The notes below the pieces were generated by a model. It ran no database searches, was not told where the DNA came from, and saw nothing but the letters and a program-made list of their open reading frames with translations. 64,000 bases of DNA from Acidobacteriota bacterium (GTDB lineage: Bacteria > Acidobacteriota > Thermoanaerobaculia > Gp7-AA8), in assembly GCA_021781455.1 (NCBI GenBank), contig JAJXWV010000041.1, positions 75,484-139,483 of the forward strand. Reading direction: 5' to 3'. The position numbers were made by a program, and so were the translations under genes. Positions 92 through 56,705 of this stretch are shown piece after piece. The stretch's first letter is position 1. Every line of letters starts with the position of its first letter.

Positions 92-101
92 GCACACCCT
101 T

Positions 102-178
102 CTGAGTGCTGAGTCCTGAGTGCTGGGTCCTGAGCGGTGTTCTCCACACTCAGGACTCAGGACTCAGGACTCAGGACT
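102..178. repeat. Family A inverted heptamer array, copy A1. Left arm CTGAGTG/CTGAGTC units, 14-nt spacer, right arm four CTCAGGA units.
   Basis: ctgagtgctgagtcctgagtgctgggtcctgag cggtgttctccaca ctcaggactcaggactcaggactcaggact. The arms are reverse complements of each other. Confidence 0.8.
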
Positions 179-184
179 CTCTTT

Positions 185-2056: not shown

Positions 2057-2182
2057 GGTGTCTTTCTCTCCACGGCGGACGGGAAGCATAACGGCTGCCC
2101 AGGGAACCGCGTCCGGCATCGAGCCGGACCGAAGCCGCCGGGCTGGAAGGCCGCTGGCCGGCGGGCAGGATGCCCGCACTCC

Positions 2183-3406
2183 TCACTCGTAGCGGAGCGC
2201 TTCGATCGGGTCGAGCTTGGAGGCTTTGGCGGCTGGATAGATTCCGAAAAGAATGCCGAGAAAAGCGCAGAAGCCGAAGGCCAGGGCGATCGCCCAGATG
2301 GGCGTGTGCACCGGAGGCAGCTCGACGAACTTCTTCAGACCGAACCGGGCAGCTGTTGCCAGGCCGTAACCGCCGGCCACGCCAATGACGCCGCCGAGGG
2401 CCGAGAGGGCGATGGCTTCGATGAGGAACTGCACGAGCACGTCGCGCCGACGCGCCCCGATCGACTTGCGGATTCCGATCTCCCGGGTCCGTTCGGTGAC
2501 CGAGACCAGCATGATGTTCATGATCCCGATGCCGCCGACGAGCAGCGCGATGCCGACCACTGCGGCCATGATCAGCGTGATGTTCAGCAGCACGGTCGAG
2601 ATCGTCTTCATCAGCTCTTCCTGAGCGATGATGCGGAAATCGTTGGGATCGCCTTTCTTGAGGTGATGGCGGGCGCGAAGCACCTCGGTGACCTGCTCGC
2701 GCGCCAGATCGAGATCGCTGCCGGGGCGCATCTGGAACGCCAGCACGAGCTTGCGCATGTTCTCGCTCCCGAAGATCACCGTGGCGGTGGAGAACGGGAT
2801 CAGGACGATGTCGTCCTGGTTGTTTCCGAACGTGCCACCCTTCTTCTCCATGATTCCCACCACCGTGAAGGTGGTGTTATTGATCTGGATGAGCTTGCCG
2901 ATCGGATTGGTGCCGAGCTTGAGCTTCTCCACGACGTCCAGCCCGATCGTGCAGACGTCTTTGCGGCCATCCTGGTCGATGGGTGTGAAGAAGCGTCCGT
3001 GCTCGACCCAGTGGTTGACGATCTCCTGGTAGACGTCGCTGACCGCATACAACTGCACCTGGTGATGAGCGTCGCCGTACTTGAGCGAGGCGTTGGCGAT
3101 GTAGATGGGGGTGAACTCGCCGATGGCCGTCGTGGCGCGGCGCACGGCATTGGCGTCGTCGATGGTGAGGTCGGGCAGTTTCTGCAGAAACGGGTTCCGC
3201 TGCTCGCCGGGATCGGGATAGACCTCGATGAAGTTCGATCCGATGCCCTGCAGGTTCTGGGAGATGTTGTACTGCATTCCCTGGACGAGCGAAACGACGG
3301 CGATGACCGAAGCCACCCCGATCATGATGCCGAGCACGGTCAGGATCGAGCGGAGCTTGCTGGCCCAGATGGCACGCAGGGCGATCTTTATGTTTTCGAG
3401 GAGCAT
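2183..3406 (-). CDS. macB: MacB-type ABC transporter permease (FtsX fold, MacB periplasmic domain)
   Basis: MLLENIKIALRAIWASKLRSILTVLGIMIGVASVIAVVSL ... DPIEALRYE, the typical MacB/LolE permease architecture. Start is moved to Met at 3406 because the upstream 30 codons of the ORF-track model are the family A repeat translated (STQHSVLSTKK). The start is 5 nt after the stop of the four-helix-bundle gene. Confidence 0.85.
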   Translation of the reverse strand: MLLENIKIALRAIWASKLRSILTVLGIMIGVASVIAVVSLVQGMQYNISQNLQGIGSNFIEVYPDPGEQRNPFLQKLPDLTIDDANAVRRATTAIGEFTPIYIANASLKYGDAHHQVQLYAVSDVYQEIVNHWVEHGRFFTPIDQDGRKDVCTIGLDVVEKLKLGTNPIGKLIQINNTTFTVVGIMEKKGGTFGNNQDDIVLIPFSTATVIFGSENMRKLVLAFQMRPGSDLDLAREQVTEVLRARHHLKKGDPNDFRIIAQEELMKTISTVLLNITLIMAAVVGIALLVGGIGIMNIMLVSVTERTREIGIRKSIGARRRDVLVQFLIEAIALSALGGVIGVAGGYGLATAARFGLKKFVELPPVHTPIWAIALAFGFCAFLGILFGIYPAAKASKLDPIEALRYE

Positions 3407-3410
3407 CTTT

Positions 3411-3818
3411 TTAGTGCTGAGTACTGAGTGCTGAGTACTGAGTGTGATTGCGCGGGCCTGCAATCGAGGCCCGTAAACCGCCGATGATCCGGCCAACTTC
3501 TTCAGCTCGTTCGAGGAGCACTTTCAGCGCCGGTTCGCTGATGTAGTCGACATCGAAGGCAATGTAGAGCTGTGTTCTCAGCTCGGCACAGGAGCCCTTC
3601 GCCACCGAAAGGAACTGGTGAAATTCCGAGCGGCGTGCGCGCTCGAATCCCTCCGCGATATTGGAAGGAATGGAGACGGCTGCTCGCCGAATCTGATCCT
3701 GCAAAGAACGGTCAGTCCAGAACGGCCTGCGGCGAGTGACGACGTAGACATCGCGCACGAGCGTTCGGGCCTTTTGCCATGCGATGAGATCCTCGAAGCG
3801 ATCAACTCGTTTTGCCAT
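3411..3818 (-). CDS. Four-helix-bundle protein (TIGR02436 / 23S rRNA intervening-sequence protein family)
   Basis: 135 aa. MAKRVDRFEDLIAWQKARTLVRDVYVVTRR...IPSNIAEGFERARRSEFHQFLSVAKGSCAELRTQLYIA matches the conserved core of the family (IPSNIAEG, GS..EL..QL). The gene sits between the macB ATPase and permease genes and is flanked on both sides by family A arrays. Confidence 0.8.
   Translation of the reverse strand: MAKRVDRFEDLIAWQKARTLVRDVYVVTRRRPFWTDRSLQDQIRRAAVSIPSNIAEGFERARRSEFHQFLSVAKGSCAELRTQLYIAFDVDYISEPALKVLLERAEEVGRIIGGLRASIAGPRNHTQYSALSTQH
3413..3445. repeat. Family A heptamer array, copy A2, CTGAGTA/CTGAGTG orientation. Left arm of the pair that brackets the four-helix-bundle gene.
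   Basis: gtgctgagtactgagtgctgagtactgagtg. It overlaps the 3' end of the four-helix-bundle CDS (encoding ...YSALSTQH). Confidence 0.8.
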
Positions 3819-3873
3819 GAGTTGATTGTCCCTCGGTCTACGAGAATCGGCGAAAACTCTACCCCGCGAAGAC

Positions 3874-3937
3874 TCACTCAGTACTCAGCACTCAGTACTC
3901 AGCACTCAGTACTCAGCACTCAGTACTCAGTACTCGG
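3874..3937. repeat. Family A heptamer array, copy A3, CTCAGTA/CTCAGCA orientation. Right arm of the pair around the four-helix-bundle gene.
   Basis: ctcagtactcagcactcagtactcagcactcagtactcagcactcagtactcagtactcgg, nine tandem heptamers that end at the macB ATPase stop codon. Confidence 0.85.
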
Positions 3938-3938
3938 C

Positions 3939-4631
3939 TCAGACGATCTTCCCATCCCGAATGTGGATGATCCTCTTCGCTTCGTGGGCCACGTCGTCTT
4001 CGTGGGTGACCATGATGATCGAGTTCCCGCGGTTGTGGAGCTCGCGGAAGAGGTCGAGGATCTCGCGGCCCGTCTTGGAATCGAGGTTTCCGGTGGGCTC
4101 GTCCGCCAGCAGCAACGACGGGCGATTGACGAGAGCTCGGGCGATGGCCACGCGCTGGCGCTGACCGCCGGAGAGCTCGTTCGGCTGGTGGTTCATGCGT
4201 TCGCGCAGGCCGACCGCCGCCAGAGCCTCTTCGGCCAGATCGCGGCGCTCGTGACGCGGGATTTTGGCGTAGATCAGCGGAAGCTCCACGTTCTGCAGGG
4301 CCGTCGTGCGCGGCAGGAGATTGAAGGTCTGGAAGACGAACCCGATCTTCTTGTTGCGGATCGCCGCCAGCTCGTCGTCGTCCATCGACTCCACGGGCGT
4401 GCCGTCGAGCAGGTACTTCCCGTCGGTGGGCCGGTCGAGGCAACCGATGATGTTCATCAGCGTCGATTTTCCGGAGCCTGACGGACCCATGATGGCCACG
4501 TACTCGCCGTTCTCGATGATCAGGTCGACGCCGCTGAGGGCATAGATCTGCTGCGGACCGAGCTCGTACACGCGCTTCAGCCCGTGCATCTCGATCAGGT
4601 TCGCCGGAGCCGATTCTGCGACAGCGCTCAT
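3939..4631 (-). CDS. macB: MacB/LolD-type ABC transporter ATP-binding protein
   Basis: Walker [11 protein letters not shown]-loop, signature [15 protein letters not shown], Walker [14 protein letters not shown]-loop MVTHE. 230 aa. Confidence 0.9.
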
Positions 4632-5858
4632 GATTGGGTGGTTTCCTTCGTCGTGGTGTTTTCTTTCGTGATCTCGACGGCATCGCCGTCGTGCAGCTTC
4701 TTGAGCGTGCGGAACGGGCCGGTCACGATGGAATCGCCGCTCTTGATGCCGGAGGTGATGGCCACGTGCGTGGCATCGCTGATTCCGGTCTGCACCTCGA
4801 CCATACGAACTTTCCCGTCGTTCACCACAAATACGTACTTTTTCCGGGGAAGATTCTCGTCCGAGGAGTCTTCTTCACCTTTTTTTGCTCCCGGGACGCG
4901 CTCGACGACGCTTTGGATCGGCACCGACACCGTGTTCGGGGCCACGTTGGTCACGATCGAGACCTGGGAGCTCATACCCGGCCGGAGGCGGTCGTCGGGG
5001 TTGTCGATCAGCACCTTGACGGTGAAGTAGCGCACGCCGCTGCCGGCGCTCTGGCGGATGTTCGCGGAGCTGCCGATCTCGCTGACGTGTCCCGAGTATT
5101 CCTTGTCCGGCACGGCGTCCACGTGAATTCTGCCGGCCTGGCCGACGCGGATCCCGACGATGTCGGTCTCCCCCACCTCGGCGTTAACCAGGATCTGCGA
5201 GAGATCGGCGATGACGGCGATGACCGAGCCGGGATTGTTCATCGTGCCGGTGATCACCACTTCACCCTCGCGGGCGCTGAGCTGGACCACCTTGCCGTCG
5301 ATCGGCGAGCTGATGGTGGTGTGGGAAAGGTCGGTCTCGGCCTGCACGAGCGCGTCCCGGGCCTGACGTACCCCCTGCTCGGCCGAGCTGTATCCGGCGC
5401 GGGCATTGTCGTAGGCCAGTTTGGCCTGGTCGAACAGCTCCTGCGAGTTGATGCCCTGCTTCTGAAGGTTCACGGCGCGGTCATAGGCGAGTTTGGCGGT
5501 GGCGAGTGCCACGCGGCTGCGCTCCACTTCGATGCGACCGTTCTCGACCATCGATCGCATGCGGTCGCGCGCCGCGACGAACGAGGCGCGCTCGAGATCG
5601 ACGAGCTTCTGCCCCTTCTTCACGTAATCGCCTTCGTTGAAGTAGAGCTTCTCGATCTTGCCGATCACGTAGGCGCTGATGTTGACCTGCAGCTTCGGGT
5701 CGATCTCGCCGGGCGCGGTGACCACGGCCTCGATCTTCCGAGGCACGGCCTTCTCGGCGTAGACCTTTTCGGCGTTGCCGCCTCCGCTGCGGATGCTGAA
5801 ATAAACGATCGCGCCAATGAGGACGACGGCCGCCGCGATGATCAGCGGTCGCTTCACT
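4628..5858 (-). CDS. macA: Efflux periplasmic adaptor subunit (HlyD/MacA family)
   Basis: N-terminal TM anchor ([20 protein letters not shown]), coiled-coil region, beta-barrel and MP domains ([12 protein letters not shown]...[18 protein letters not shown]). Start is set at GTG 5858, overlapping the Yip1 stop by 4 nt. The ORF-track start at 6106 would overlap the Yip1 gene. Confidence 0.8.
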
Positions 5859-6615
5859 TCATCCTCGACGCCTGCAACACCGCGAAGGCCACCTTGACGG
5901 CTACCGCGAGCACCCACAGCGAGATCACGATCGTCGCCGACTTGCTCCTGGACAGCTTCGACATCGCCGCGTAGCCGATGATGAGCAGCACGAGGGCCCA
6001 GATCGTGAAGATGTCCAGTGAGCCGAGGAGCGCCGCCTGGACGGGCTGCAGCCTGTGATCGACGAGGAAGGAAAGGTTCGAGCGGACGGGATTGCTGAGA
6101 TCCCACGCCGTGAGGTCCCTCCGGTTCAGAAGAACGATTGTGGCCACGGCGGCGTGGAGCAGGAGCGGGTACCAGCCGTAAACCAGAATCGAGAAGGCCT
6201 GCTTGTAGTCGCCTTCTCCTCCAAAAAGCCGGAAGGCGATGAGGAAGATGCCCGCCACGATGGCCAGAACGATCAGCTGCAGAACGGGGGACGCGTACGT
6301 GGCGGCCTTGGCGACGGCCGCCCCGAAGCGGACGGCGCGTGCCATCTGGTCGGGCGTCATCTCCGACGCCCGTGGCGACTGTTGGATGCTGTCGCGCGTG
6401 ATGGATGCGAAATCGATGTGCCGGACAAGCAGCACGTTCGCCGTCAGCGAGATGGCGATCAGGATCAGCAGCGGGACGAGGATGTCGGGCCGGCGCGCGA
6501 TCGATTCGAGCGTCTCCACGGGCGAGAAGAACACGCCCATGATCCGCTGAAAAGAGTTGACCTTCGTCCCGGCCGCATTTGGCTGCGGGGCAACCGGCTC
6601 GACGTCTGCCGTCAT
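5854..6615 (-). CDS. Yip1-domain integral membrane protein
   Basis: 253 aa with five hydrophobic segments after an N-terminal soluble segment (FFSPVETLESIARRPDILVPLLILIAISL...), typical of the Yip1 family. It is translationally coupled to the upstream tolC and the downstream macA. Confidence 0.65.
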   Translation of the reverse strand: MTADVEPVAPQPNAAGTKVNSFQRIMGVFFSPVETLESIARRPDILVPLLILIAISLTANVLLVRHIDFASITRDSIQQSPRASEMTPDQMARAVRFGAAVAKAATYASPVLQLIVLAIVAGIFLIAFRLFGGEGDYKQAFSILVYGWYPLLLHAAVATIVLLNRRDLTAWDLSNPVRSNLSFLVDHRLQPVQAALLGSLDIFTIWALVLLIIGYAAMSKLSRSKSATIVISLWVLAVAVKVAFAVLQASRMK

Positions 6616-6616
6616 C

Positions 6617-8326
6617 TCATTGTCCGCCTTCCAGATGGGCGTGACTTGCGTAGTTCAGCCAATTGTATCGGTCCCAACTCGAGAAGATGTGCGGCTCGTC
6701 GACCGGCGCAACGTCGGTCTTGATGCCCTGAACGTCGAGCAGATCGCCGACCTGGCGGTGATAAGCGGCCACGGCCTTGTTGTACCCGACGAGGGCCTGA
6801 AGCTCGTTCGCGCGTGCGGTCGAGAGCTGCTGCTGGATCTGCAGCACTTCGAAGTTCGTGGCCATGCCGTTCTCGTAGCGCTTGCGCTCGGCGGCCAGGT
6901 TCTCCTCGGCCGCCTCGCGCGCGGTGCGCGTCGCCGAGATCTGGCGCGCGGTCGTGTCGATGGCCCGGGCCGTCTGCCGGACGGCCGTGGCGATCGTCTG
7001 CCGGGTCTGGTCCTCGCTGACGCGCGATTCTTCCCAGTCCAGCCGCGAGCGCCTCGCTTCCGCTTTTGCGGCAATGTTGAGGATCGGCATGCCGACGTTG
7101 AACCCCACCGTCCATGCCGGAAAGTCAATGCCGGCAACCTGCGAGAGTGCGTGCGTGTACCCGGTGGTCAGGGTCTGGCCAGTGGGCTGTCCGGTCACGG
7201 GATCGTTCAGGAACTCCGTTCCCGCGAGACCGGAGGCCGAGTAGTTTGCGACGAAGTCGACCCGCGGCAGGACCTGGTTCTTCGCGTAGAGGTACTGAAC
7301 CCGCTTGTTCGCCGTGCCCAGCTGCGTTTCCTTCAGCTCCGGACGGAGATCGTAGGCGCGGGCGACCGCCTGCGCGACATCGACCGTCATCGGAGTGTAG
7401 GTGACGTTGTCGGTAGGGATGATTGGCCGGCCCCAGTCGCCAGGAGCCAGATTCAACAATGCGCGCAGGCGATCCTCTGCATCGCGAACTGCCGCGACCG
7501 CGTTGATCAGGTCTTCTTCGGTCGTGGCGATCTGCACTCGCGGCTGGAGGATGTCCAGCGGCGCAGAGGCGCCCACATTGATCCGGATCTGGGTGATGCG
7601 GGCCTGGTCTCTAGCCAGGAACACCGCCTCCTTCGCCACGTCGACGAACCGCCGCGCGTAGACGAGATCGAGATAGGCCTGCTCGGTCGCGGAAACCGTG
7701 TCCATCAACATGCCCCGGAACGCCTCGCGGCTGATCCCGAGGTTGTTGCGCGCGATCGTGATGCCGCGGCGCGTGATGTCCACGCCGAAGTTCCGCAGCA
7801 ACGGCTGCGTGAACTGGAAGTTCAGCGAGCTGGTGATCGAGGGGTTCACCGTGCTGAATCGGTTGTTCGATCGGTTCCACGCATTCGAAAAGCCGACGCT
7901 ATACGAACCGCCCGTCGGGATCTCCTGCGAGACAGCCGCGTTGGCCACCGTCGCGCTGCTCGATGAAGACTGCACCTGCGACGCGACGGCAGACTTCGTG
8001 CTCGACCGCTGCAGCAATCCGCTGCCCAGCCAGTCGAAGATGCCGTGCGACTCGATGAGGAGCTGGCCGGATTTGTCGTACTCGTACTTCTGCAGGTCGA
8101 CGCCGAGGTTCTGGCGCACCGACGTGTCGATGGCGTCATTCATCGAGAGTTTGATCGCCTGCGGATTGTTGATGTCCTGGTCGGTGTCGGCCGTGACCGG
8201 CGGGGTCTCGCGCGGCACCTCGACCGTGGTGGTCGTTGCGGTAGTCGTCGTCGGCGGCGTCTGCGCAGCCAGAGTTCCGGCCGTAACGGCACAGACGATG
8301 ATCAGCAACCGTCGAAACGCGGTCAT
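6617..8326 (-). CDS. TolC-family outer-membrane efflux protein
   Basis: Signal peptide MTAFRRLLIIVCAVTAGTLAAQ, a Thr/Pro-rich linker, then two repeats of the OEP helical/beta-barrel pattern (...AEENLAAERKRYENGMATNFEVLQIQQQL...). Start is moved to Met at 8326. Confidence 0.8.
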   Translation of the reverse strand: MTAFRRLLIIVCAVTAGTLAAQTPPTTTTATTTTVEVPRETPPVTADTDQDINNPQAIKLSMNDAIDTSVRQNLGVDLQKYEYDKSGQLLIESHGIFDWLGSGLLQRSSTKSAVASQVQSSSSSATVANAAVSQEIPTGGSYSVGFSNAWNRSNNRFSTVNPSITSSLNFQFTQPLLRNFGVDITRRGITIARNNLGISREAFRGMLMDTVSATEQAYLDLVYARRFVDVAKEAVFLARDQARITQIRINVGASAPLDILQPRVQIATTEEDLINAVAAVRDAEDRLRALLNLAPGDWGRPIIPTDNVTYTPMTVDVAQAVARAYDLRPELKETQLGTANKRVQYLYAKNQVLPRVDFVANYSASGLAGTEFLNDPVTGQPTGQTLTTGYTHALSQVAGIDFPAWTVGFNVGMPILNIAAKAEARRSRLDWEESRVSEDQTRQTIATAVRQTARAIDTTARQISATRTAREAAEENLAAERKRYENGMATNFEVLQIQQQLSTARANELQALVGYNKAVAAYHRQVGDLLDVQGIKTDVAPVDEPHIFSSWDRYNWLNYASHAHLEGGQ

Positions 8327-8543
8327 GTTGTAAGTCCTCCTAGACACGCCTCTTGTACGTAAGGCTCAGGGTGAGAGTTTCGAGAGTCGAAGGGGCGGCC
8401 GATTCGAGCGTGCATTGTACCGGCAGCATCCGATTTCAGTACGACACGGGATGGAAAACGTGGAACGGGCGTTCAACGCCGCCCAAAGTGATGACTTCCC
8501 GCCGCTTCCGCGGTTGCGCCGCGTAGGCCCAGGCGCTTCGCGC

Positions 8544-17876: not shown

Positions 17877-17965
17877 AATGGGACCGATGGGACCACTGGG
17901 ACCGATGGGACGCGTGGGACAGTCTCATAGGTCCCATTCGTCCCATCGGTCCCATTCGTCCCATT
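17877..17965. repeat. Family C inverted nonamer array (GATGGGACC units x5, spacer, GTCCCATYG units x4)
   Basis: atgggaccgatgggaccactgggaccgatgggacgcgtgggacag tctcatag gtcccattcgtcccatcggtcccattcgtcccatt. Confidence 0.85.
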
Positions 17966-20417: not shown

Positions 20418-20443
20418 GACCCGCTCAGGGCTTGGTTCCGCGG

Positions 20444-20511
20444 TTCCGCGGTTCCGCGGTTGCGCAGTGGACGTCGACCGCGGAACCGCGCAACCGCGCA
20501 ACCGCGCAACC
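20444..20511. repeat. Family B inverted octamer array (GGTTSCGC x4, spacer, GCGSAACC x4), copy B1
   Basis: ggttccgcggttccgcggttccgcggttgcgc agtggacgtcgacc gcggaaccgcgcaaccgcgcaaccgcgcaacc. It lies immediately 5' of the dnaG start. The ORF-track N-terminal extension RNRATAQPRNHA is this repeat translated. Confidence 0.85.
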
Positions 20512-20516
20512 ATGCC

Positions 20517-33459: not shown

Positions 33460-33547
33460 GCCTCGGTGGCGGAATGGCAGACGCTGCGGACTTAAAATCC
33501 GCTGCTCCGTGAGGGGCGTGCCGGTTCGAGTCCGGCCCGAGGCACCA
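33460..33547 (+). tRNA. tRNA-Leu (anticodon UAA), with long variable arm
   Basis: gcctcgg tg gcgg aatggcag acgc t gcgga cttaaaa tccgc + 17-nt variable arm + gccgg ttcgagt ccggc ccgaggc a cca. Cloverleaf folds with T-loop TTCGAGT and encoded CCA. Confidence 0.85.
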
Positions 33548-33551
33548 GACG

Positions 33552-33650
33552 AGCGGGAAGCGGGCAGCGGGTAGGACGACGGTGCTCGCCACCATCCGCG
33601 CCTCCTACCCGCTACTCGCTACCCGCTACCCGCTACCCGCTTCGTTATCA
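33552..33650. repeat. Family G inverted heptamer array (GCGGGWA x3, spacer, CGCTACC x5)
   Basis: gcgggaagcgggcagcgggtagga cgacggtgctcgccaccatccgcgcc tcctacccgctactcgctacccgctacccgctacccgc. It directly follows the tRNA-Leu 3' end. A half-copy occurs at 42906-42930. Confidence 0.8.
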
Positions 33651-40764: not shown

Positions 40765-40867
40765 GAGTGCTGAGTACTGAGTGCTGAGTACTGAGTGGTG
40801 GAACCGGAAGCAGGCCTTTGTTGTGCTCGTGACACTCAGTACTCAGCACTCAGTACTCAGCACTCAG
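40765..40867. repeat. Family A inverted heptamer array, copy A4
   Basis: gagtgctgagtactgagtgctgagtactgagtg + 37-nt spacer + ctcagtactcagcactcagtactcagcactcag. It starts 4 nt after the kinase stop. Confidence 0.85.
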
Positions 40868-40936
40868 ATCCCTTACTCGCCTCGATTCGTGACAGCCCTT
40901 ACCTCCTCCACCCGGTTCTGCGCCACAATTTGGATA

Positions 40937-42832: not shown

Positions 42833-42922
42833 TGCCGTTCCTCAACGGAAGGCGAACGTCGCGCATTTCAACATGGAAAGCGGACGCGCTTGTCCTTCGA
42901 CTCCCGTCCTACCCGCTGCCCG

Positions 42923-43210
42923 CTACTCGCCACGCGCTTGTCTGAGCAGCACCACCGTCGCTCCCCAACCGCCGCCGGTCGGATCCGCGTCGTGGAATTC
43001 TTCGACGAAGTCGAGCTTCCCCAGCAGTGACTGCACGTTTGCGCGCTGCACGCCGATGCCGCGGCCATGGATCAGACGCACCTGCCGGAAGCCGCGCGCC
43101 CGCGCTTCGCGCAGGTACTCCTCGACGACGTCGCGAATTTCGCCTGGCCTAAACGGATGCAGGTCGAGCGTGTCCTCGATCGGGATCTCGACCGGCTCGT
43201 CGTCGTTCAT
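42923..43210 (-). CDS. Smr-domain protein (small MutS-related nuclease domain, about 95 aa)
   Basis: MNDDEPVEIPIEDTLDLHPFRPGEIRDVVEEYLREARARGFRQVRLIHGRGIGVQRANVQSLLGKLDFV, the Smr fold with a conserved LDLHG-like motif. The ORF-track N-terminal extension is discarded. Confidence 0.7.
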   Translation of the reverse strand: MNDDEPVEIPIEDTLDLHPFRPGEIRDVVEEYLREARARGFRQVRLIHGRGIGVQRANVQSLLGKLDFVEEFHDADPTGGGWGATVVLLRQARGE

Positions 43211-45760: not shown

Positions 45761-45813
45761 GCCTCCCCCAAGCTGGTTTTCGAAAACGGCGGCCGCGGGC
45801 CGCCGTTTTCTCT

Positions 45814-45937
45814 AGTGCTGATTCCTGAGTGCTGAGTACCGAGTTCCGCCGTGCGATCGAGCGCCTCGTTCCGCGTCTCGTACCTGTCGCCCCAATCGCC
45901 GACTCAGTACTCAGCACTCAGTACTCAGTACTAAGAT
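45814..45937. repeat. Family A inverted heptamer array, copy A5 (57-nt spacer)
   Basis: agtgctgattcctgagtgctgagtaccgag ... ctcagtactcagcactcagtactcagtact. Confidence 0.8.
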
Positions 45938-45946
45938 TCGCCCGCC

Positions 45947-49646: not shown

Positions 49647-49767
49647 GAGTGCTGAGTACTGAGTGCTGAGTACTGAGTGGCGAGTACTGAGTGGCGAGTA
49701 CTGAGTGCTGAGTGGCGACGCCGCCGCTCGGCATTGACTCAGTACTCAGCACTCAGTACTCAGCACT
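49647..49767. repeat. Family A inverted heptamer array, copy A6 (long left arm with GAGTGGC variants)
   Basis: gagtgctgagtactgagtgctgagtactgagtggcgagtactgagtggcgagtactgagtgctgagtggc gacgccgccgctcggcattga ctcagtactcagcactcagtactcagcact. Confidence 0.85.
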
Positions 49768-49772
49768 TCGCG

Positions 49773-50186
49773 ATGACAGAACAGACGACGAGCCCACACG
49801 TCGACACACGGGGCCTGACGCGCGATCAGCTTCTGCAGATCGAGTACTACCTCCGTCTGACGCGTGCGCTGGAGGAGCGGCTGGTGGCGCTGTTCCGGCA
49901 GTCGAAGGTGATCGGAGGCCTCTATCGCTCCCTCGGGCAGGAGGGCGAGTCCGTGGCCGCCGCCTATGCGCTCGATTACAAGCAGGGCGACGTCGTGCAG
50001 CCGCTGATCCGCAACATGGGCGCGATCCTCGTGGCGGGTGCAAGACCTCTGGACATCGTGCGGCAGTACATGGCCAAGGGCGACTCGCCGACTCGCGGGC
50101 GCGAGCTGAACATCCATTTCGGACATCCGGCGCGGGACGGATTCATCGGCCAGATCTCGATGCTCTTGATCAGTGCCGATCACTGA
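49773..50186 (+). pseudogene. Truncated 2-oxoacid dehydrogenase E1 component alpha subunit. Only the N-terminal ~137 codons remain. The 3' part and the E1 beta gene are absent.
   Basis: LTRDQLLQIEYYLRLTRALEERLVALFRQSKVIGGLYRSLGQEGESVAAAYAL...GDSPTRGRELNIHFG is collinear with the first third of PdhA/BkdA1. The frame stops at 50186, where family A copy A7 begins. The E2 gene follows 100 bp later. Confidence 0.7.
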
Positions 50187-50250
50187 GAGCTGAGCACGCG
50201 TCGAATGACTCGGTAACGACACTCAGTACTCAGCACTCAGCACTCAGCAC
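50184..50250. repeat. Family A heptamer array, copy A7 (weak left arm, right arm ctcagtactcagcactcagcactcagcact)
   Basis: ctgagagctgagcac gcgtcgaatgactcggtaacgaca ctcagtactcagcactcagcactcagcact. Confidence 0.75.
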
Positions 50251-50289
50251 TTCGATTGCATATGCTTCTTGTCCTGCAGGAGTGAGCAA

Positions 50290-51786: not shown

Positions 51787-52944
51787 ATGCGCGTTTGCGA
51801 GCTCCACAAGCTTCACCTCGTCACTTACGAGAATGGGATGAAGCTGCAGCAGAAGCTCGTCGAGCTGCGTCAGACCGAGCAGATCCCCGATCAGCTGCTG
51901 CTCCTCGAGCATCCGCCGGTGATCACGCTCGGCCGTGGCGGCAACGCTGCGAACCTGCTCGCGAGCGGCGAGCGGCTGCGAGCCGAACGCGTCCGCTTTT
52001 TCGAGACCACGCGCGGTGGCGACATCACCTACCACGGCCCCGGCCAGGTCGTCGGATATCCGATCATCCACCTCGGCGAAGGCAATCGCGACGTTCGCAA
52101 GTACGTCACCAAGCTCGAGGAAGTGCTGATCCGAACCGTGGCGCACTACGGCATCACCGCCGCACGCGTGGAGGGGAAGCGCGGCATCTGGGTCGGCAAC
52201 GACAAGATCGCCGCGATCGGCGTGCGCATCGCACGATGGGTGACCTCGCACGGTTTCGCCCTCAACGTCGGCACCAATCTCGATCACTTCCGTCTGATCA
52301 CGCCGTGCGGCCTGCACGGCACCGGCGTCACTTCGATCGAGCGCGAGATCGGACGGACCATTCCAATCGAGGAAGTCCGGGATCTCCTGGCTGCAAAGTT
52401 CGCCGAGGTCTTCGAGCGGGAGATGGTCCCGCGGCCGGAGAACATCCGGCTGATCAAGATCGTGCTGCACGACGCCGGCAATCGCGTGCTGCTACTGCAT
52501 CGCAAGCCGGAACGGGGCAATTTCTGGCAACCCATCACCGGGGCAATCGAGAAGGATGAGGCGCCGCTCGAGGCCGCCCGCCGCGAGCTTCTCGAAGAGA
52601 CGGGCACGGCCGGCGAGCCGCGGCCGATGGGCATCACCCAGTCGTTTCTGATCGAGTCGACGTTCCTCTCCTCGCGGCTCGGTGCTCTCGTCATCGCCAG
52701 CGAGGTCGGCTTCGAGATGCCCGTCGACTCTTCGATTCCGATCCGCATCGATCCCGAGGAGCATGACGGCCACGGCTGGTTCACCTTCGGCGAGGCCTAC
52801 GAGAAGATCCGCTGGACCGACGACCGTGAAGCGCTCGAGGAGCTGGAAACGCGGTTGTGCGGCCCCGCGATGGCACAGTTCCGCGATGACGACGAAGAAG
52901 AAACCGCGCAACCGCGGAGCCGCGGAACCGCGCAACCAGTATGA
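51787..52944 (+). CDS. lipB: Octanoyltransferase LipB fused to a C-terminal Nudix hydrolase domain
   Basis: LipB part: HPPVITLGRGG, TTRGGDITYHGPGQVVGYPII, KIAAIGVRIARWVTSHGFALNV (with the catalytic Cys in PCGLHG). Nudix box: GAIEKDEAPLEAARRELLEETG (Gx5Ex7REUxEExGU) at residues about 250-272. The C-terminal tail ETAQPRSRGTAQPV is a family B octamer array translated. Confidence 0.8.
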   Translation: MRVCELHKLHLVTYENGMKLQQKLVELRQTEQIPDQLLLLEHPPVITLGRGGNAANLLASGERLRAERVRFFETTRGGDITYHGPGQVVGYPIIHLGEGNRDVRKYVTKLEEVLIRTVAHYGITAARVEGKRGIWVGNDKIAAIGVRIARWVTSHGFALNVGTNLDHFRLITPCGLHGTGVTSIEREIGRTIPIEEVRDLLAAKFAEVFEREMVPRPENIRLIKIVLHDAGNRVLLLHRKPERGNFWQPITGAIEKDEAPLEAARRELLEETGTAGEPRPMGITQSFLIESTFLSSRLGALVIASEVGFEMPVDSSIPIRIDPEEHDGHGWFTFGEAYEKIRWTDDREALEELETRLCGPAMAQFRDDDEEETAQPRSRGTAQPV

Positions 52945-53894: not shown

Positions 53895-54173
53895 ATGCCG
53901 CGCGTCACATTCGTGGATGAGCAGAAAGCGGCAGAGTTTCCCGCCGGAAAGACCATCCTGTCCTGCGCCGGAGAAATGGGCGTACAAGTCAGTCACGTCT
54001 GCGGCGGAGACGGCGCGTGCGGGACTTGCAGGATCGAAGTCGTTGTGGGTTGGGACAACCTCACGCCGCCGACGCCCGATGAGACATACAAAGAGCTCGA
54101 GCCACCTCACCGCCTCTCCTGCCAGTCGAAACTGGTCGGGGACGTGGTGGTCAAGGTGGCCAAGATTGATTGA
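53895..54173 (+). CDS. 2Fe-2S ferredoxin
   Basis: CGGDGACGTC...C spacing of plant/adrenodoxin-type [2Fe-2S] ferredoxins. 92 aa. Confidence 0.75.
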   Translation: MPRVTFVDEQKAAEFPAGKTILSCAGEMGVQVSHVCGGDGACGTCRIEVVVGWDNLTPPTPDETYKELEPPHRLSCQSKLVGDVVVKVAKID

Positions 54174-54238
54174 GACCAGAGACCGCAGACCACAGACCGC
54201 AGGATCCACTGCGGTCCGTGGTCTGTGGTCTGCGGTCC
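54173..54238. repeat. Family E inverted heptamer array (GACCRCA x4, spacer, TGYGGTC x4)
   Basis: gagaccagagaccgcagaccacagaccgcag gatccac tgcggtccgtggtctgtggtctgcggtc. Confidence 0.85.
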
Positions 54239-56495: not shown

Positions 56496-56572
56496 GGCGG
56501 TGTAGCTCAGCTGGTTAGAGCGGGCGTCTCATAAGCGCTAGGTCACTGGTTCGATTCCAGTCACCGCCACCA
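56496..56572 (+). tRNA. tRNA-Met (CAU anticodon, elongator type). The tRNA-Ile(k2C) alternative is not excluded.
   Basis: ggcggtg ta gctc agctggttag agcg ggcgt ctcataa gcgct aggtc actgg ttcgatt ccagt caccgcc acca. Fully paired acceptor stem, CCA encoded. Confidence 0.8.
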
Positions 56573-56625
56573 AATTCGCTTTCCCCACTTCTGTCGCGAC
56601 TGCACCTGTGGTCCGACGGCCACGA

Positions 56626-56705
56626 GGTTGCGCGGTTGCGCGGTGGACGGCGACGATCGTCGGGTCTGACACCGCGCAACCCCGCAACCGCGGAACCGCG
56701 CAACC
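56626..56705. repeat. Family B inverted octamer array, copy B3
   Basis: ggttgcgcggttgcgcggtgg acggcgacgatcgtcgggtctgacac cgcgcaaccccgcaaccgcggaaccgcgcaacc, directly downstream of the tRNA-Met. Confidence 0.85.

Follow-up and report, generated by a model that had tools for sequence, protein, structure and literature searches.

The closest described relatives of the element reported here are the intervening sequences (IVSs) of 23S rRNA genes that contain an open reading frame (ORF), and the set used for comparison consists of those from Leptospira, Coxiella burnetii, Xanthomonas and Brucella (Ralph & McClelland 1993, as cited in PMC4990558). In Coxiella, RNase III cleaves the stem that holds the S23p ORF, the heptamer GACAGAT is repeated in tandem two to four times just 5' of this ORF, and an old idea that the ORF of the IVS serves mobility is quoted (Warrier et al. 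2016, PMC4990558). Here we describe a gene for a four-helix-bundle (4HB) protein of the same family, enclosed by two tandem heptamer arrays (the arms), in a stretch of 64,000 nt (the window) from an Acidobacteriota bacterium (assembly GCA_021781455.1, contig JAJXWV010000041.1, positions 75,484 to 139,483). It lies between the ATPase and permease genes of a MacAB-type operon. We consider it likely that this feature is an IVS-like cassette hitchhiking on the operon in the mRNA, which was fixed here anciently and is probably coupled in translation to the permease gene.

In REPIN-RAYT systems, the genes of REP-associated tyrosine transposases (RAYTs) are flanked by inverted REPs (repetitive extragenic palindromic sequences). 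Cyanobacteria carry heptamers known as short tandemly repeated repetitive (STRR) sequences, and Avd, the accessory protein of diversity-generating retroelements (DGRs), forms a basic pentamer with RNA and a reverse transcriptase as its binding partners. Arrays of GGGAATC were catalogued in Xanthomonas, with 70-75 convergent pairs flush in operon junctions (Rehm et al. 2015, PMC4692102), and TAACTGA direct repeats were reported in Beggiatoaceae and cyanobacteria (MacGregor 2015, PMC4679880). G-quadruplex or translational roles have been proposed for such arrays, and the available parts of these two papers make no connection to 4HB genes. Genes called 23S_rRNA_IVP were found inside cas operons and read as a functional association with nucleases (Zhang & Ye 2013, PMC3936711); in Pleurocapsa PCC 7327 such a gene separates cmr3 from cmr2, with gaps of 85 nt to the gene before it and 5 nt to the one after it (PMC3936711). 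A general rule for such cassettes was not found in the open-access literature on TIGR02436, PF05635 or S23p with heptamers or inverted repeats.

The genes of the locus are all on the minus strand in the order of outer-membrane factor, Yip1-family protein, MacA-like adaptor, ABC ATPase, 135-aa ORF, MacB-type permease and S55 peptidase (Table 1). The 135-aa protein scored 112 bits with TIGR02436 (cut-off 24) and 123.1 bits with PF05635 (cut-off 33.8), which is matched with a previous sequence-only reading that had recognized a TIGR02436-type gene between the macB ATPase and permease genes. That reading placed the stop codon of the 4HB gene 5 nt before the permease ATG. The actual gap is 4 nt, with the stop at 3413..3411 and the ATG at 3406..3404, and the spacing is 0-5 nt as well in six comparison loci from other assemblies (L005, L006, L007, L009, L011 and L008). 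The ATPase stop codon was thought to lie inside the right arm, but the TGA (3941..3939) belongs to a degenerate outermost unit (CTGAGCC) just past the last good unit, beyond the well-formed array; in the orthologues this stop is 0-8 nt outside the array.

The gene is bracketed by arrays as the sequence-only reading described, and Tandem Repeats Finder (TRF) and a regular-expression (regex) scan gave their limits as listed in Table 1. There are 8.6 units upstream and 4.4 units downstream of the ORF, so tandem heptamers occupy the stem region 5' of the ORF, like GACAGAT in Coxiella and the GGACNGA-type units in Azospirillum (see below). The arms form an inverted repeat of 32 nt at 100% identity, or 44 nt at 91% (3413-3456 / 3863-3906) when it runs into unique sequence. 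In the minimum free energy (MFE) fold of a 556-nt RNA, both arms were paired with each other (z = -7.3), giving a 32-bp perfect stem and a 6-bp inner helix with a duplex energy of about -76 kcal/mol. Thus terminal inverted repeats build a long stem which encloses the ORF, as in the IVSs of rRNA.

The two arms have different coding character. TGA occurs three times in each of the three reading frames of the 5' arm, while the 3' arm has zero stops in any frame. Because the 3' arm is stop-free, the 4HB ORF runs through it, gains the tail ..TQYSALSTQH and ends at the first stop, directly before the permease start; the final 10-11 codons consist of array units, which agrees with what had been noticed earlier. 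The dimer of the unit, CTGAGTRCTGAGTR, occurred 36 times in the window with at most one mismatch, against 0.04 expected from shuffles. This number, together with the presence of the same locus in independent assemblies, ruled out chance or artefact. A known RNA family in the arms was also ruled out, because Rfam gave none.

Comparison with the 23S IVSs showed both likeness and difference. As in the IVSs, an ORF of PF05635/TIGR02436 is located in the loop of an inverted-repeat stem, in sense orientation and within a transcribed host unit, and the distribution is sporadic, which suggests horizontal spread. The host here is a protein-coding operon junction rather than helix 45: the flanking genes encode the ABC ATPase and the permease, so the copy is not inside a 23S rRNA gene (helix 25 or 45), and no rRNA was found in the window by Rfam, whose matches were two tRNAs only. 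The Coxiella ORF is decaying and probably untranslated, whereas purifying selection acts on the ORF of this locus, which is preceded by a good Shine-Dalgarno site. It also reads through the 3' arm and abuts the next gene, unlike the ORFs of the 23S IVSs, and excision by RNase III is only predicted here.

The same unit of arm, gene and arm is present at many unrelated operon junctions. Among relatives of the 4HB gene we could score 78 loci, i.e. 73 of the 80 from a metagenome scan (51-65% identical) and five fetched earlier, and a wider set contained 84 loci. Arms were called when the 160 nt upstream of the gene formed an inverted repeat with its 3' end or with the region downstream, and the gene interior served as control. 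Such arms were found in 58 of the 78 loci and in none of the 78 internal controls, so the expectation of the sequence-only reading that other armed 4HB genes exist held among these metagenomic relatives. Pairing between arms of the same locus scored 40.9 against 24.3 +/- 1.0 for permuted partners (0/5000 permutations). The units in the metagenomic loci varied (AGTGCTG, AGGACTG, AGTGATG, AGCAATG, AGTCCTT, AGTTTCA and others), and since they differ so widely, what stays constant is the period of 7 nt and the mirror symmetry of the arms. A universal motif of the arm unit was sought and rejected, as the units over all copies included GAGTRCT, AGGACTG, AGTGATG, AGCAATG, AGTCAGG, GGGAAAA, GGACNGA, AAGGTTY, TTAGCTG and the 8-mer GGGCAGGA.

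In the wider set, a gene on the same strand lies just upstream in 58 of the 66 loci with enough flank, and the downstream gene starts within 13 nt of the 4HB stop in 32 of 47. Upstream neighbours represent 62 Pfam families and downstream neighbours 56. On neither side do the 25 commonest families include a transposase, although an enzyme acting in trans would escape such a count. Many database homologues also end with repeat-coded tails (TQHSALSTQH, SSLITHHSSL, SSVLSPQS). One copy with 64% identity and the same GTGCTGA arms comes from a metagenome-assembled genome (MAG) labelled Anaerolinea, where the operon is an unrelated one with genes for a MoxR-like ATPase, a metallophosphatase and a VWA protein.

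The stop-free arm also has consequences for gene calling. The mechanical ORF of the permease (2183-3496, minus strand) reaches 30 codons upstream through the 3' arm (..ITLSTQHSVLSTKKM..) because this arm has no stops in any frame, which is a trap for gene callers. In the metagenomic loci L092 (125-1531), L109 (748-2130) and L167 (2989-4410) the 4HB frame continues about 1 kb or more beyond the 3' arm. These frames may come from a stop-free arm that fuses the 4HB ORF to the next gene, or from sequencing frameshifts in the repeat.

Copies in cultured bacteria show what the inserted unit is. Plasmid pNPUN02 of Nostoc punctiforme and plasmid pNsp_c of Nostoc sp. ATCC 53789 share an operon with genes 86-92% identical at the DNA level, and they carry 4HB cassettes at different, adjacent stop/start junctions. 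Identity between the two proteins is only 36%, and their arms, (AGTCAGG)n/(CCTGACT)n versus (GGGAAAA)n/(CCCTTTT)n, show no relation to each other. The reciprocal empty sites are bare (TCTAG-G-TTATG and GATAA-TTT-ATG), therefore the inserted unit is arm, gene and arm together. In pNPUN02 the insert spans ATCAGGAGTCAGG... to ...CTGGATTCTGA between TCTAG and TTATG, and its terminal inverted repeats reach the insert ends. The proposal that the arms are the vehicle of a mobile gene stands in part: the arm-4HB-arm unit was inserted into bare sites in Nostoc, but neither a transposase nor a target-site duplication was seen.

In plasmid AZO_p2 of Azospirillum lipoferum, the 4HB ORF is inside the large-subunit (LSU) rRNA (Rfam 2139 bits) and has inverted heptamer arrays of GGACNGA type on both sides (L177), so this copy is a genuine 23S IVS of the same construction. 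Seven of the eight examples from cultured bacteria had both arms, and the eighth, Nostoc PCC 7120, had the downstream arm only. Other armed copies are those on plasmids of Riemerella, Picosynechococcus, Calothrix and Gemmatirosa, the last with units of 8 nt. The copy of Picosynechococcus PCC 7003 is armed and located between cmr2 and cmr3, and the geometry of the genes in cas operons is the same as here; their flanking arrays and cassette nature are undescribed in PMC3936711.

With these loci, we can weigh the view that the arms are ordinary intercistronic hairpins of the host, serving as mRNA stabilisers or processing sites, and that a 4HB gene landed in the loop or the arrays arose independently on each side. 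Other junctions of the window do hold short, positionally conserved hairpins of the same family, Xanthomonas carries such hairpins and no 4HB gene in its gltBD, groESL and atp operons (PMC4692102), and in Segatella copri (L043) a solo hairpin separates the macB ATPase gene from the permease gene. Yet the empty sites are bare and not hairpin-bearing (L012, L013 and both Nostoc junctions), 58 of 78 related 4HB genes are armed with widely different units that match within the locus, and the copy in 23S rRNA is armed though no such host hairpin belongs there. So this view appears very improbable to us.

The Segatella hairpin itself (L043 3879-3966, NZ_VZBE01000072.1) has units (GTTRAAT)n / (CAYTTAA)n and lies between genes for a macB-type ATPase and permease, so an unrelated bacterium has a hairpin at the junction type that the cassette occupies here.

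At the locus of the window, the cassette has a long vertical history. The closest named relatives of the neighbouring proteins are from Thermoanaerobaculia, and the exact 4HB protein is present also in the MAGs GCA_027325785.1 and GCA_027388875.1. Homologues with 86, 75, 68, 64 and 62% identity occupy the same operon junction with both arms each (L005, L006, L007, L009, L011), and the metagenome scan added six syntenic loci (L133, L140, L158, L162, L165, L166) whose ATPase is 79-87% identical. The orthologue set has 12 loci which carry gene and arms at one junction. Synonymous sites are saturated (pS 0.64-0.82 vs pN 0.09-0.33) and dN/dS is 0.05-0.25 where computable. It means that the 4HB gene is old and the protein is kept by purifying selection. 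A recent insertion was ruled out by the 12 orthologous carriers and the saturated dS.

The unit of the arms changes among these orthologues (GTGCTGA, GTACTGA, GTCCTGA, GGACTGA, GTCCTTA), and both arms are always switched together. Even an odd unit that occurs singly has its mirror copy in the opposite arm, as GGGGACT does in L158 and GGGTGCT in L165. Over the 12 loci, pairing of a locus's own arms scored 60.2, against 38.9 +/- 3.7 with permuted partners, and 0 of 20000 permutations reached 60.2. The two arms stay complementary while the unit sequence drifts.

More distant Thermoanaerobaculia (L012, L013) have the same gene order of outer-membrane factor (OEP), Yip1, membrane-fusion protein (MFP), ATPase and permease, with ATPase and permease genes abutting and neither 4HB gene nor arrays. 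These outgroups came from a permease scan of species-representative genomes, among the matches listed, where identity reached 51% and the window's own species was not recovered. Among the matches listed, none of 80 more distant macB loci had a 4HB gene. So the cassette was acquired once, in the ancestor of a Thermoanaerobaculia subclade, and then inherited vertically. The sequence-only reading had asked whether ATPase and permease are adjacent without the insert in related genomes; L012 and L013 are so, but the cassette proved old and vertical at this locus, with 12 carriers, all armed, and not recently mobile.

The retention at one site in 12 diverged loci with dN/dS 0.05-0.25, and the tight coupling of the 4HB stop to the permease start, could also be expected of a domesticated accessory or regulator of the MacAB-type pump, with the arms as its expression control. 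MacB_PCD was found in 6 of 42 downstream neighbours in the metagenome sample, and five of them (L133, L140, L158, L162, L165) are orthologues of this operon. However, close homologues with the same arms are spread over more than 50 gene contexts unrelated to each other, some lie within cas operons or in rRNA, the outgroup operons work without a 4HB gene, and no family annotation or structure ties the 4HB protein to transport. We therefore give hardly any credence to a pump accessory.

One assembly needs separate mention. L002 (9840-10000; GCA_027388875.1, DAHYCD010000023.1) matches the window without a difference once the 5' arm is reached (window 3875-3945 compared), and upstream of the array it has unrelated genes (GGDEF/EAL, aminotransferase, pyruvate:ferredoxin oxidoreductase) in place of the macA and ATPase genes. 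Because the switch falls exactly at the heptamer array, L002 is probably an assembly chimera through the dispersed repeat. The arms break or mis-join metagenome assemblies.

The predicted structure is matched with the family assignment. An AlphaFold2 (AF2) model from 32 homologues (pLDDT 89.7) has four helices at residues 12-28, 37-60, 63-89 and 95-120, and residues 121-135 are the repeat-encoded tail, which is disordered in the model. The nearest solved relative is PDB 2GSC (Xcc0516; E = 5e-15). Foldseek listed 2GSC, 2RLD and then phage Avd (bAvd), with a target-normalised TM-score of 0.90-0.93 for 2GSC at 36-38% identity and a query-normalised TM-score of 0.67-0.69 for the Avd structures 4DWL and 8UB7, so the fold is a bundle like that of Xcc0516 (2GSC) and BT_0352 (2RLD). 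The RxxxSxxxNxxE motif is present as RAAVSIPSNIAE at residues 45-56, with S49, N53 and E56 invariant in the homologue alignment; the leading G of GxxRxxxSxxxNxxE, the form reported in PMC3936711, is absent. The protein is basic (pI 10). The 2GSC entry has five chains and a pentamer was reported (Lin et al. 2006, as cited in PMC4990558), so by analogy the protein of this locus is probably a pentamer. Nucleic-acid binding, as in the relative Avd, is our guess for its role.

The 4HB protein shares fold and superfamily with Avd. It differs in scoring 27.5 bits against the DGR Avd model NF033474, whose cut-off is 80 (PF22296 was also a weak match), and the operon has no reverse transcriptase, template repeat or variable repeat. 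A DGR Avd was ruled out by the score under the cut-off and the lack of a reverse transcriptase nearby. The PADLOC defence-model search of the protein gave 0 families, and a defence gene was ruled out on this ground. No catalytic motif was found in the 120-residue helical bundle; only 4HB/Avd-type families matched, and no HUH/Y1 (IS200-like) transposase.

How such an insertion could persist inside an operon may be read from the arms. The cassette would have no promoter of its own and would be transcribed by read-through from the operon promoter. In a consensus scan of 2100-8500, both strands lacked promoter-like sites and the minus (operon) strand also lacked terminator-like ones, which is weak evidence as Acidobacteriota promoters may differ; with the same reserve, a promoter or terminator belonging to the cassette was rejected. 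The 5' arm, with TGA in all three frames, would halt ribosomes reading on from the ATPase gene, and the 4HB gene would be translated from its own Shine-Dalgarno site. Ribosomes translating 4HB through the stop-free 3' arm would melt the stem and could re-initiate on the permease gene 4 nt further on. This termination-reinitiation would keep the insertion non-polar, and a non-polar insertion would explain the persistence of such insertions. If the message is untranslated, the arms may pair (32+6 bp, about -76 kcal/mol) and would likely be a substrate of RNase III, by analogy with the IVSs of rRNA.

Several points weigh against the reading as a hitchhiking, translationally coupled cassette. RNase III cleavage of both stem strands would cost the 4HB message its stop codon and its link to the permease, which is in tension with coupling; since cutting both arms would uncouple the permease, processing and coupling must compete if both occur. 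The long purifying selection suggests that the 4HB protein is useful to itself or the host, and the label of a pure selfish passenger is then insufficient. The near-perfect Watson-Crick arms, including rare variants, suggest that arm-to-arm copying at the DNA level is no worse an explanation than selection for pairing in the RNA. No movement was seen at this locus, and no target-site duplication at the two Nostoc filled/empty pairs. Arms were not detectable in 20 of the 78 relatives, the copy of the Calothrix plasmid is antisense to its neighbours, and no linked transposase, integrase or reverse transcriptase was seen. In addition, the context calls are approximate because they are based on ORFs, and the metagenome sample was picked by similarity to a query including the repeat-coded tail, which gives a slight bias to similar arms. 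Even so, the cassette interpretation of the sequence-only reading is supported, and this copy is best filed as an IVS-type element in an mRNA operon, one instance of a wider class that is absent from the searchable literature.

The window has five other pairs of the same repeat family (family A) with short spacers (Table 1), which have the same two-arm layout as the cassette, as had been claimed. The hairpin at the S55 side is kept in position in five orthologous loci (L005 9571-9652, L006 9548-9623, L007 9530-9603, L009 8517-8612 and L011 8541-8646), where its unit shifts between loci (GAGTCCT, GAGGACT, GAGTGCT, GAGTGTT) in both arms together. The loop of the thrC hairpin (window 45783-45946) measures 56 nt in the window but 9 nt in L180 (5880-6000), and the hairpin is absent in L181 (5930-6000), where the site is bare (TTTTTCTT-AAT-ATAAGAT). 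Since it is present in L180 and absent in L181, short hairpins too behave as insertions or deletions. A 4HB relic in the 56-nt loop (45845-45900) was considered and rejected, as the tblastn match (E = 0.004) rests almost wholly on the repeat-coded tail.

These dispersed hairpins raise the alternative of a REPIN/RAYT-like pair, in which the 4HB protein would be the trans-acting partner for binding, maintenance or spread of the heptamer hairpins and is itself flanked by the repeat. Like a RAYT gene, the 4HB gene lies between inverted copies of a short repeat that is also dispersed as intergenic hairpins, and it shows long vertical persistence. The units GTACTGA/GTGCTGA of the cassette recur in 4 of the 5 short hairpins, and such hairpins are gained and lost between relatives. 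Heptamer arrays had a density of 2.71 per 10 kb in the flanks of 4HB loci versus 0.24 per 10 kb at 80 unrelated macB loci (11-fold), and extra arrays shared a 7-mer with the arms of their own locus in 43% versus 28% across loci. The basic protein is related to the RNA-binding Avd pentamer. In Xanthomonas campestris, XCC0516 abuts an array of the genome's GGGAATC family, which also has 70-75 inverted pairs in operon junctions (PMC4692102). But unlike a RAYT, the flanked gene encodes a 120-residue helical bundle without the HUH/Y1 catalytic motif, and its repeats are tandem heptamer arrays with variable units, not a fixed palindrome of 20-40 nt. The window also has hairpins of unrelated 7-, 8- and 9-nt units but one 4HB gene, the enrichment of unit matches is modest, and the association could arise just as well if deletions had turned cassettes into hairpins, or if the same genomes happened to favour both. 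A trans-acting partner of this kind is unlikely, and the IVS-like cassette stays our preferred reading.

The arrays of Xanthomonas deserve comparison in this place. The GGGAATC arrays have a period of 7, often form convergent pairs and are flush to stop and start codons of co-directional genes (PMC4692102), which is the same as in the short family-A hairpins of the window; the pair described here differs in enclosing a gene. In Xanthomonas campestris ATCC 33913, accB (XCC0517) is followed after 6 nt by a GGGAATC array (622956-622983) that covers the start annotated for XCC0516 (Table S2A row 15, PMC4692102), and XCC0516 is the 4HB protein crystallised as 2GSC. This copy may be another operon-embedded cassette; the link of accB-XCC0516 to the array is unremarked in the available part of PMC4692102.

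A much wider picture can be drawn, which we put forward only as a doubtful speculation. In it, the 4HB cassettes would be one widespread, unnamed class of mobile elements at highly transcribed junctions (the 'IVS' of rRNA and the stop/start junctions of operons), an Avd-like pentamer would be their own trans-acting factor that binds or templates the 7-nt arrays, the thousands of heptamer hairpins and arrays of bacterial genomes (among them family A, Xanthomonas GGGAATC and cyanobacterial STRR) would be non-autonomous derivatives or footprints, and the near-perfect mirroring of rare units in the arms would come from a repeat-copying step.

The IVS of rRNA is one habitat of a more general cassette. 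MAGs with the labels Acidobacteriota and Chloroflexota have the cassette at operon junctions, as do replicons of Cyanobacteriota, Bacteroidota and Gemmatimonadota, while the copy on an alphaproteobacterial plasmid is a true 23S IVS. It would tie together three loose ends and open them to testing: the origin and movement of ORF-carrying 23S IVSs, the function of the very large 'four helix bundle / S23p' family, and the mirror-image heptamer arrays of some bacteria. Reported associations of 4HB genes with CRISPR-cas or other operons may be mere hitch-hiking. The culturable Nostoc plasmids with filled and empty sites and the crystallised Xanthomonas member make experiments possible.

Table 1. Coordinates of the cassette, its host operon and the short family-A hairpins in the window
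Feature	Position	Strand	Evidence
5' arm (mRNA sense), (GAGTRCT)n, 8.6 units; plus strand YACTCAG	3875..3935	-	TRF, regex scan, stop count per frame
3' arm, (AGYACTC)n, 4.4 units; plus strand CTGAGTR; inside end of 4HB ORF, TAA stop directly after	3413..3444	-	TRF, regex scan
Pairing segment, part of 5' arm and 12 nt of unique sequence, complementary to 3413-3456; inner CGCGGG/CCCGCG helix	3863..3906	-	Inverted-repeat search, MFE structure, duplex energy
4HB leader with Shine-Dalgarno-like GAGGGA (3834..3829), 10 nt before ATG	3819..3862	-	Sequence; conserved in L005, L006, L011
4HB gene, 135 aa, TIGR02436/PF05635	3411..3818	-	Profile matches, AF2 model, Foldseek
Junction 4HB/permease, 4 nt (AAAG), then permease ATG (3406..3404)	3404..3410	-	Sequence
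MacB-type permease gene, 407 aa	2183..3406	-	PF12704 MacB_PCD and PF02687 FtsX
MacB-type ABC ATPase gene, 230 aa	3939..4631	-	PF00005 (ABC_tran); best NCBIfam match is MacB residues 3-222 (N-terminal part)
MacA-like membrane-fusion (periplasmic adaptor) gene	4628..5857	-	ORF; RND/YknX-type adaptor Pfam domains on 409-aa called gene in L001
Yip1-family membrane protein gene	5854..6615	-	ORF; PF04893 in L001
Outer-membrane factor (OEP/TolC-like) gene, first in operon	6617..8347	-	ORF; PF02321 OEP on identical called gene in L001
Short family-A hairpin (CTGAGTS)n ... (ACTCAGG)n, just after S55 peptidase gene	100..179	.	TRF, regex scan
Short family-A hairpin, units GTACTGA/GTGCTGA like cassette arms	40765..40869	.	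TRF, regex scan
Short family-A hairpin between terminator-like hairpin and thrC	45814..45934	.	Present in L180, absent in L181
Short family-A hairpin	49647..49766	.	TRF, regex scan
Family-A hairpin, left arm degenerate	50183..50253	.	Regex scan

A MacAB-TolC-type system does not usually have a fifth component such as the Yip1-family gene (5854-6615, minus strand), which is placed between the genes for the outer-membrane factor and the adaptor and is conserved in all relatives and in the outgroups L012 and L013.

Tandem-unit hairpins have a density of roughly one per 6 kb in the window. Other inverted pairs or single arms, built of unrelated units, are located at 17878-17964, 20431-20514, 33552-33642, 42909-42929, 52900-52936, 54172-54236 and 56623-56705, and their units include the 9-mer ATGGGACCG, the 8-mer GGTTCCGC/ACCGCGCA and the 7-mers AGCGGGN/CTACCCG and GACCRCA. 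Each of the two tRNA genes of the window (33460-33544 and 56496-56569) has a hairpin of inverted tandem arrays within about 10-55 nt downstream of it (at 33552-33642 and 56623-56705, respectively), which suggests a role in 3' processing or a terminator-like role.

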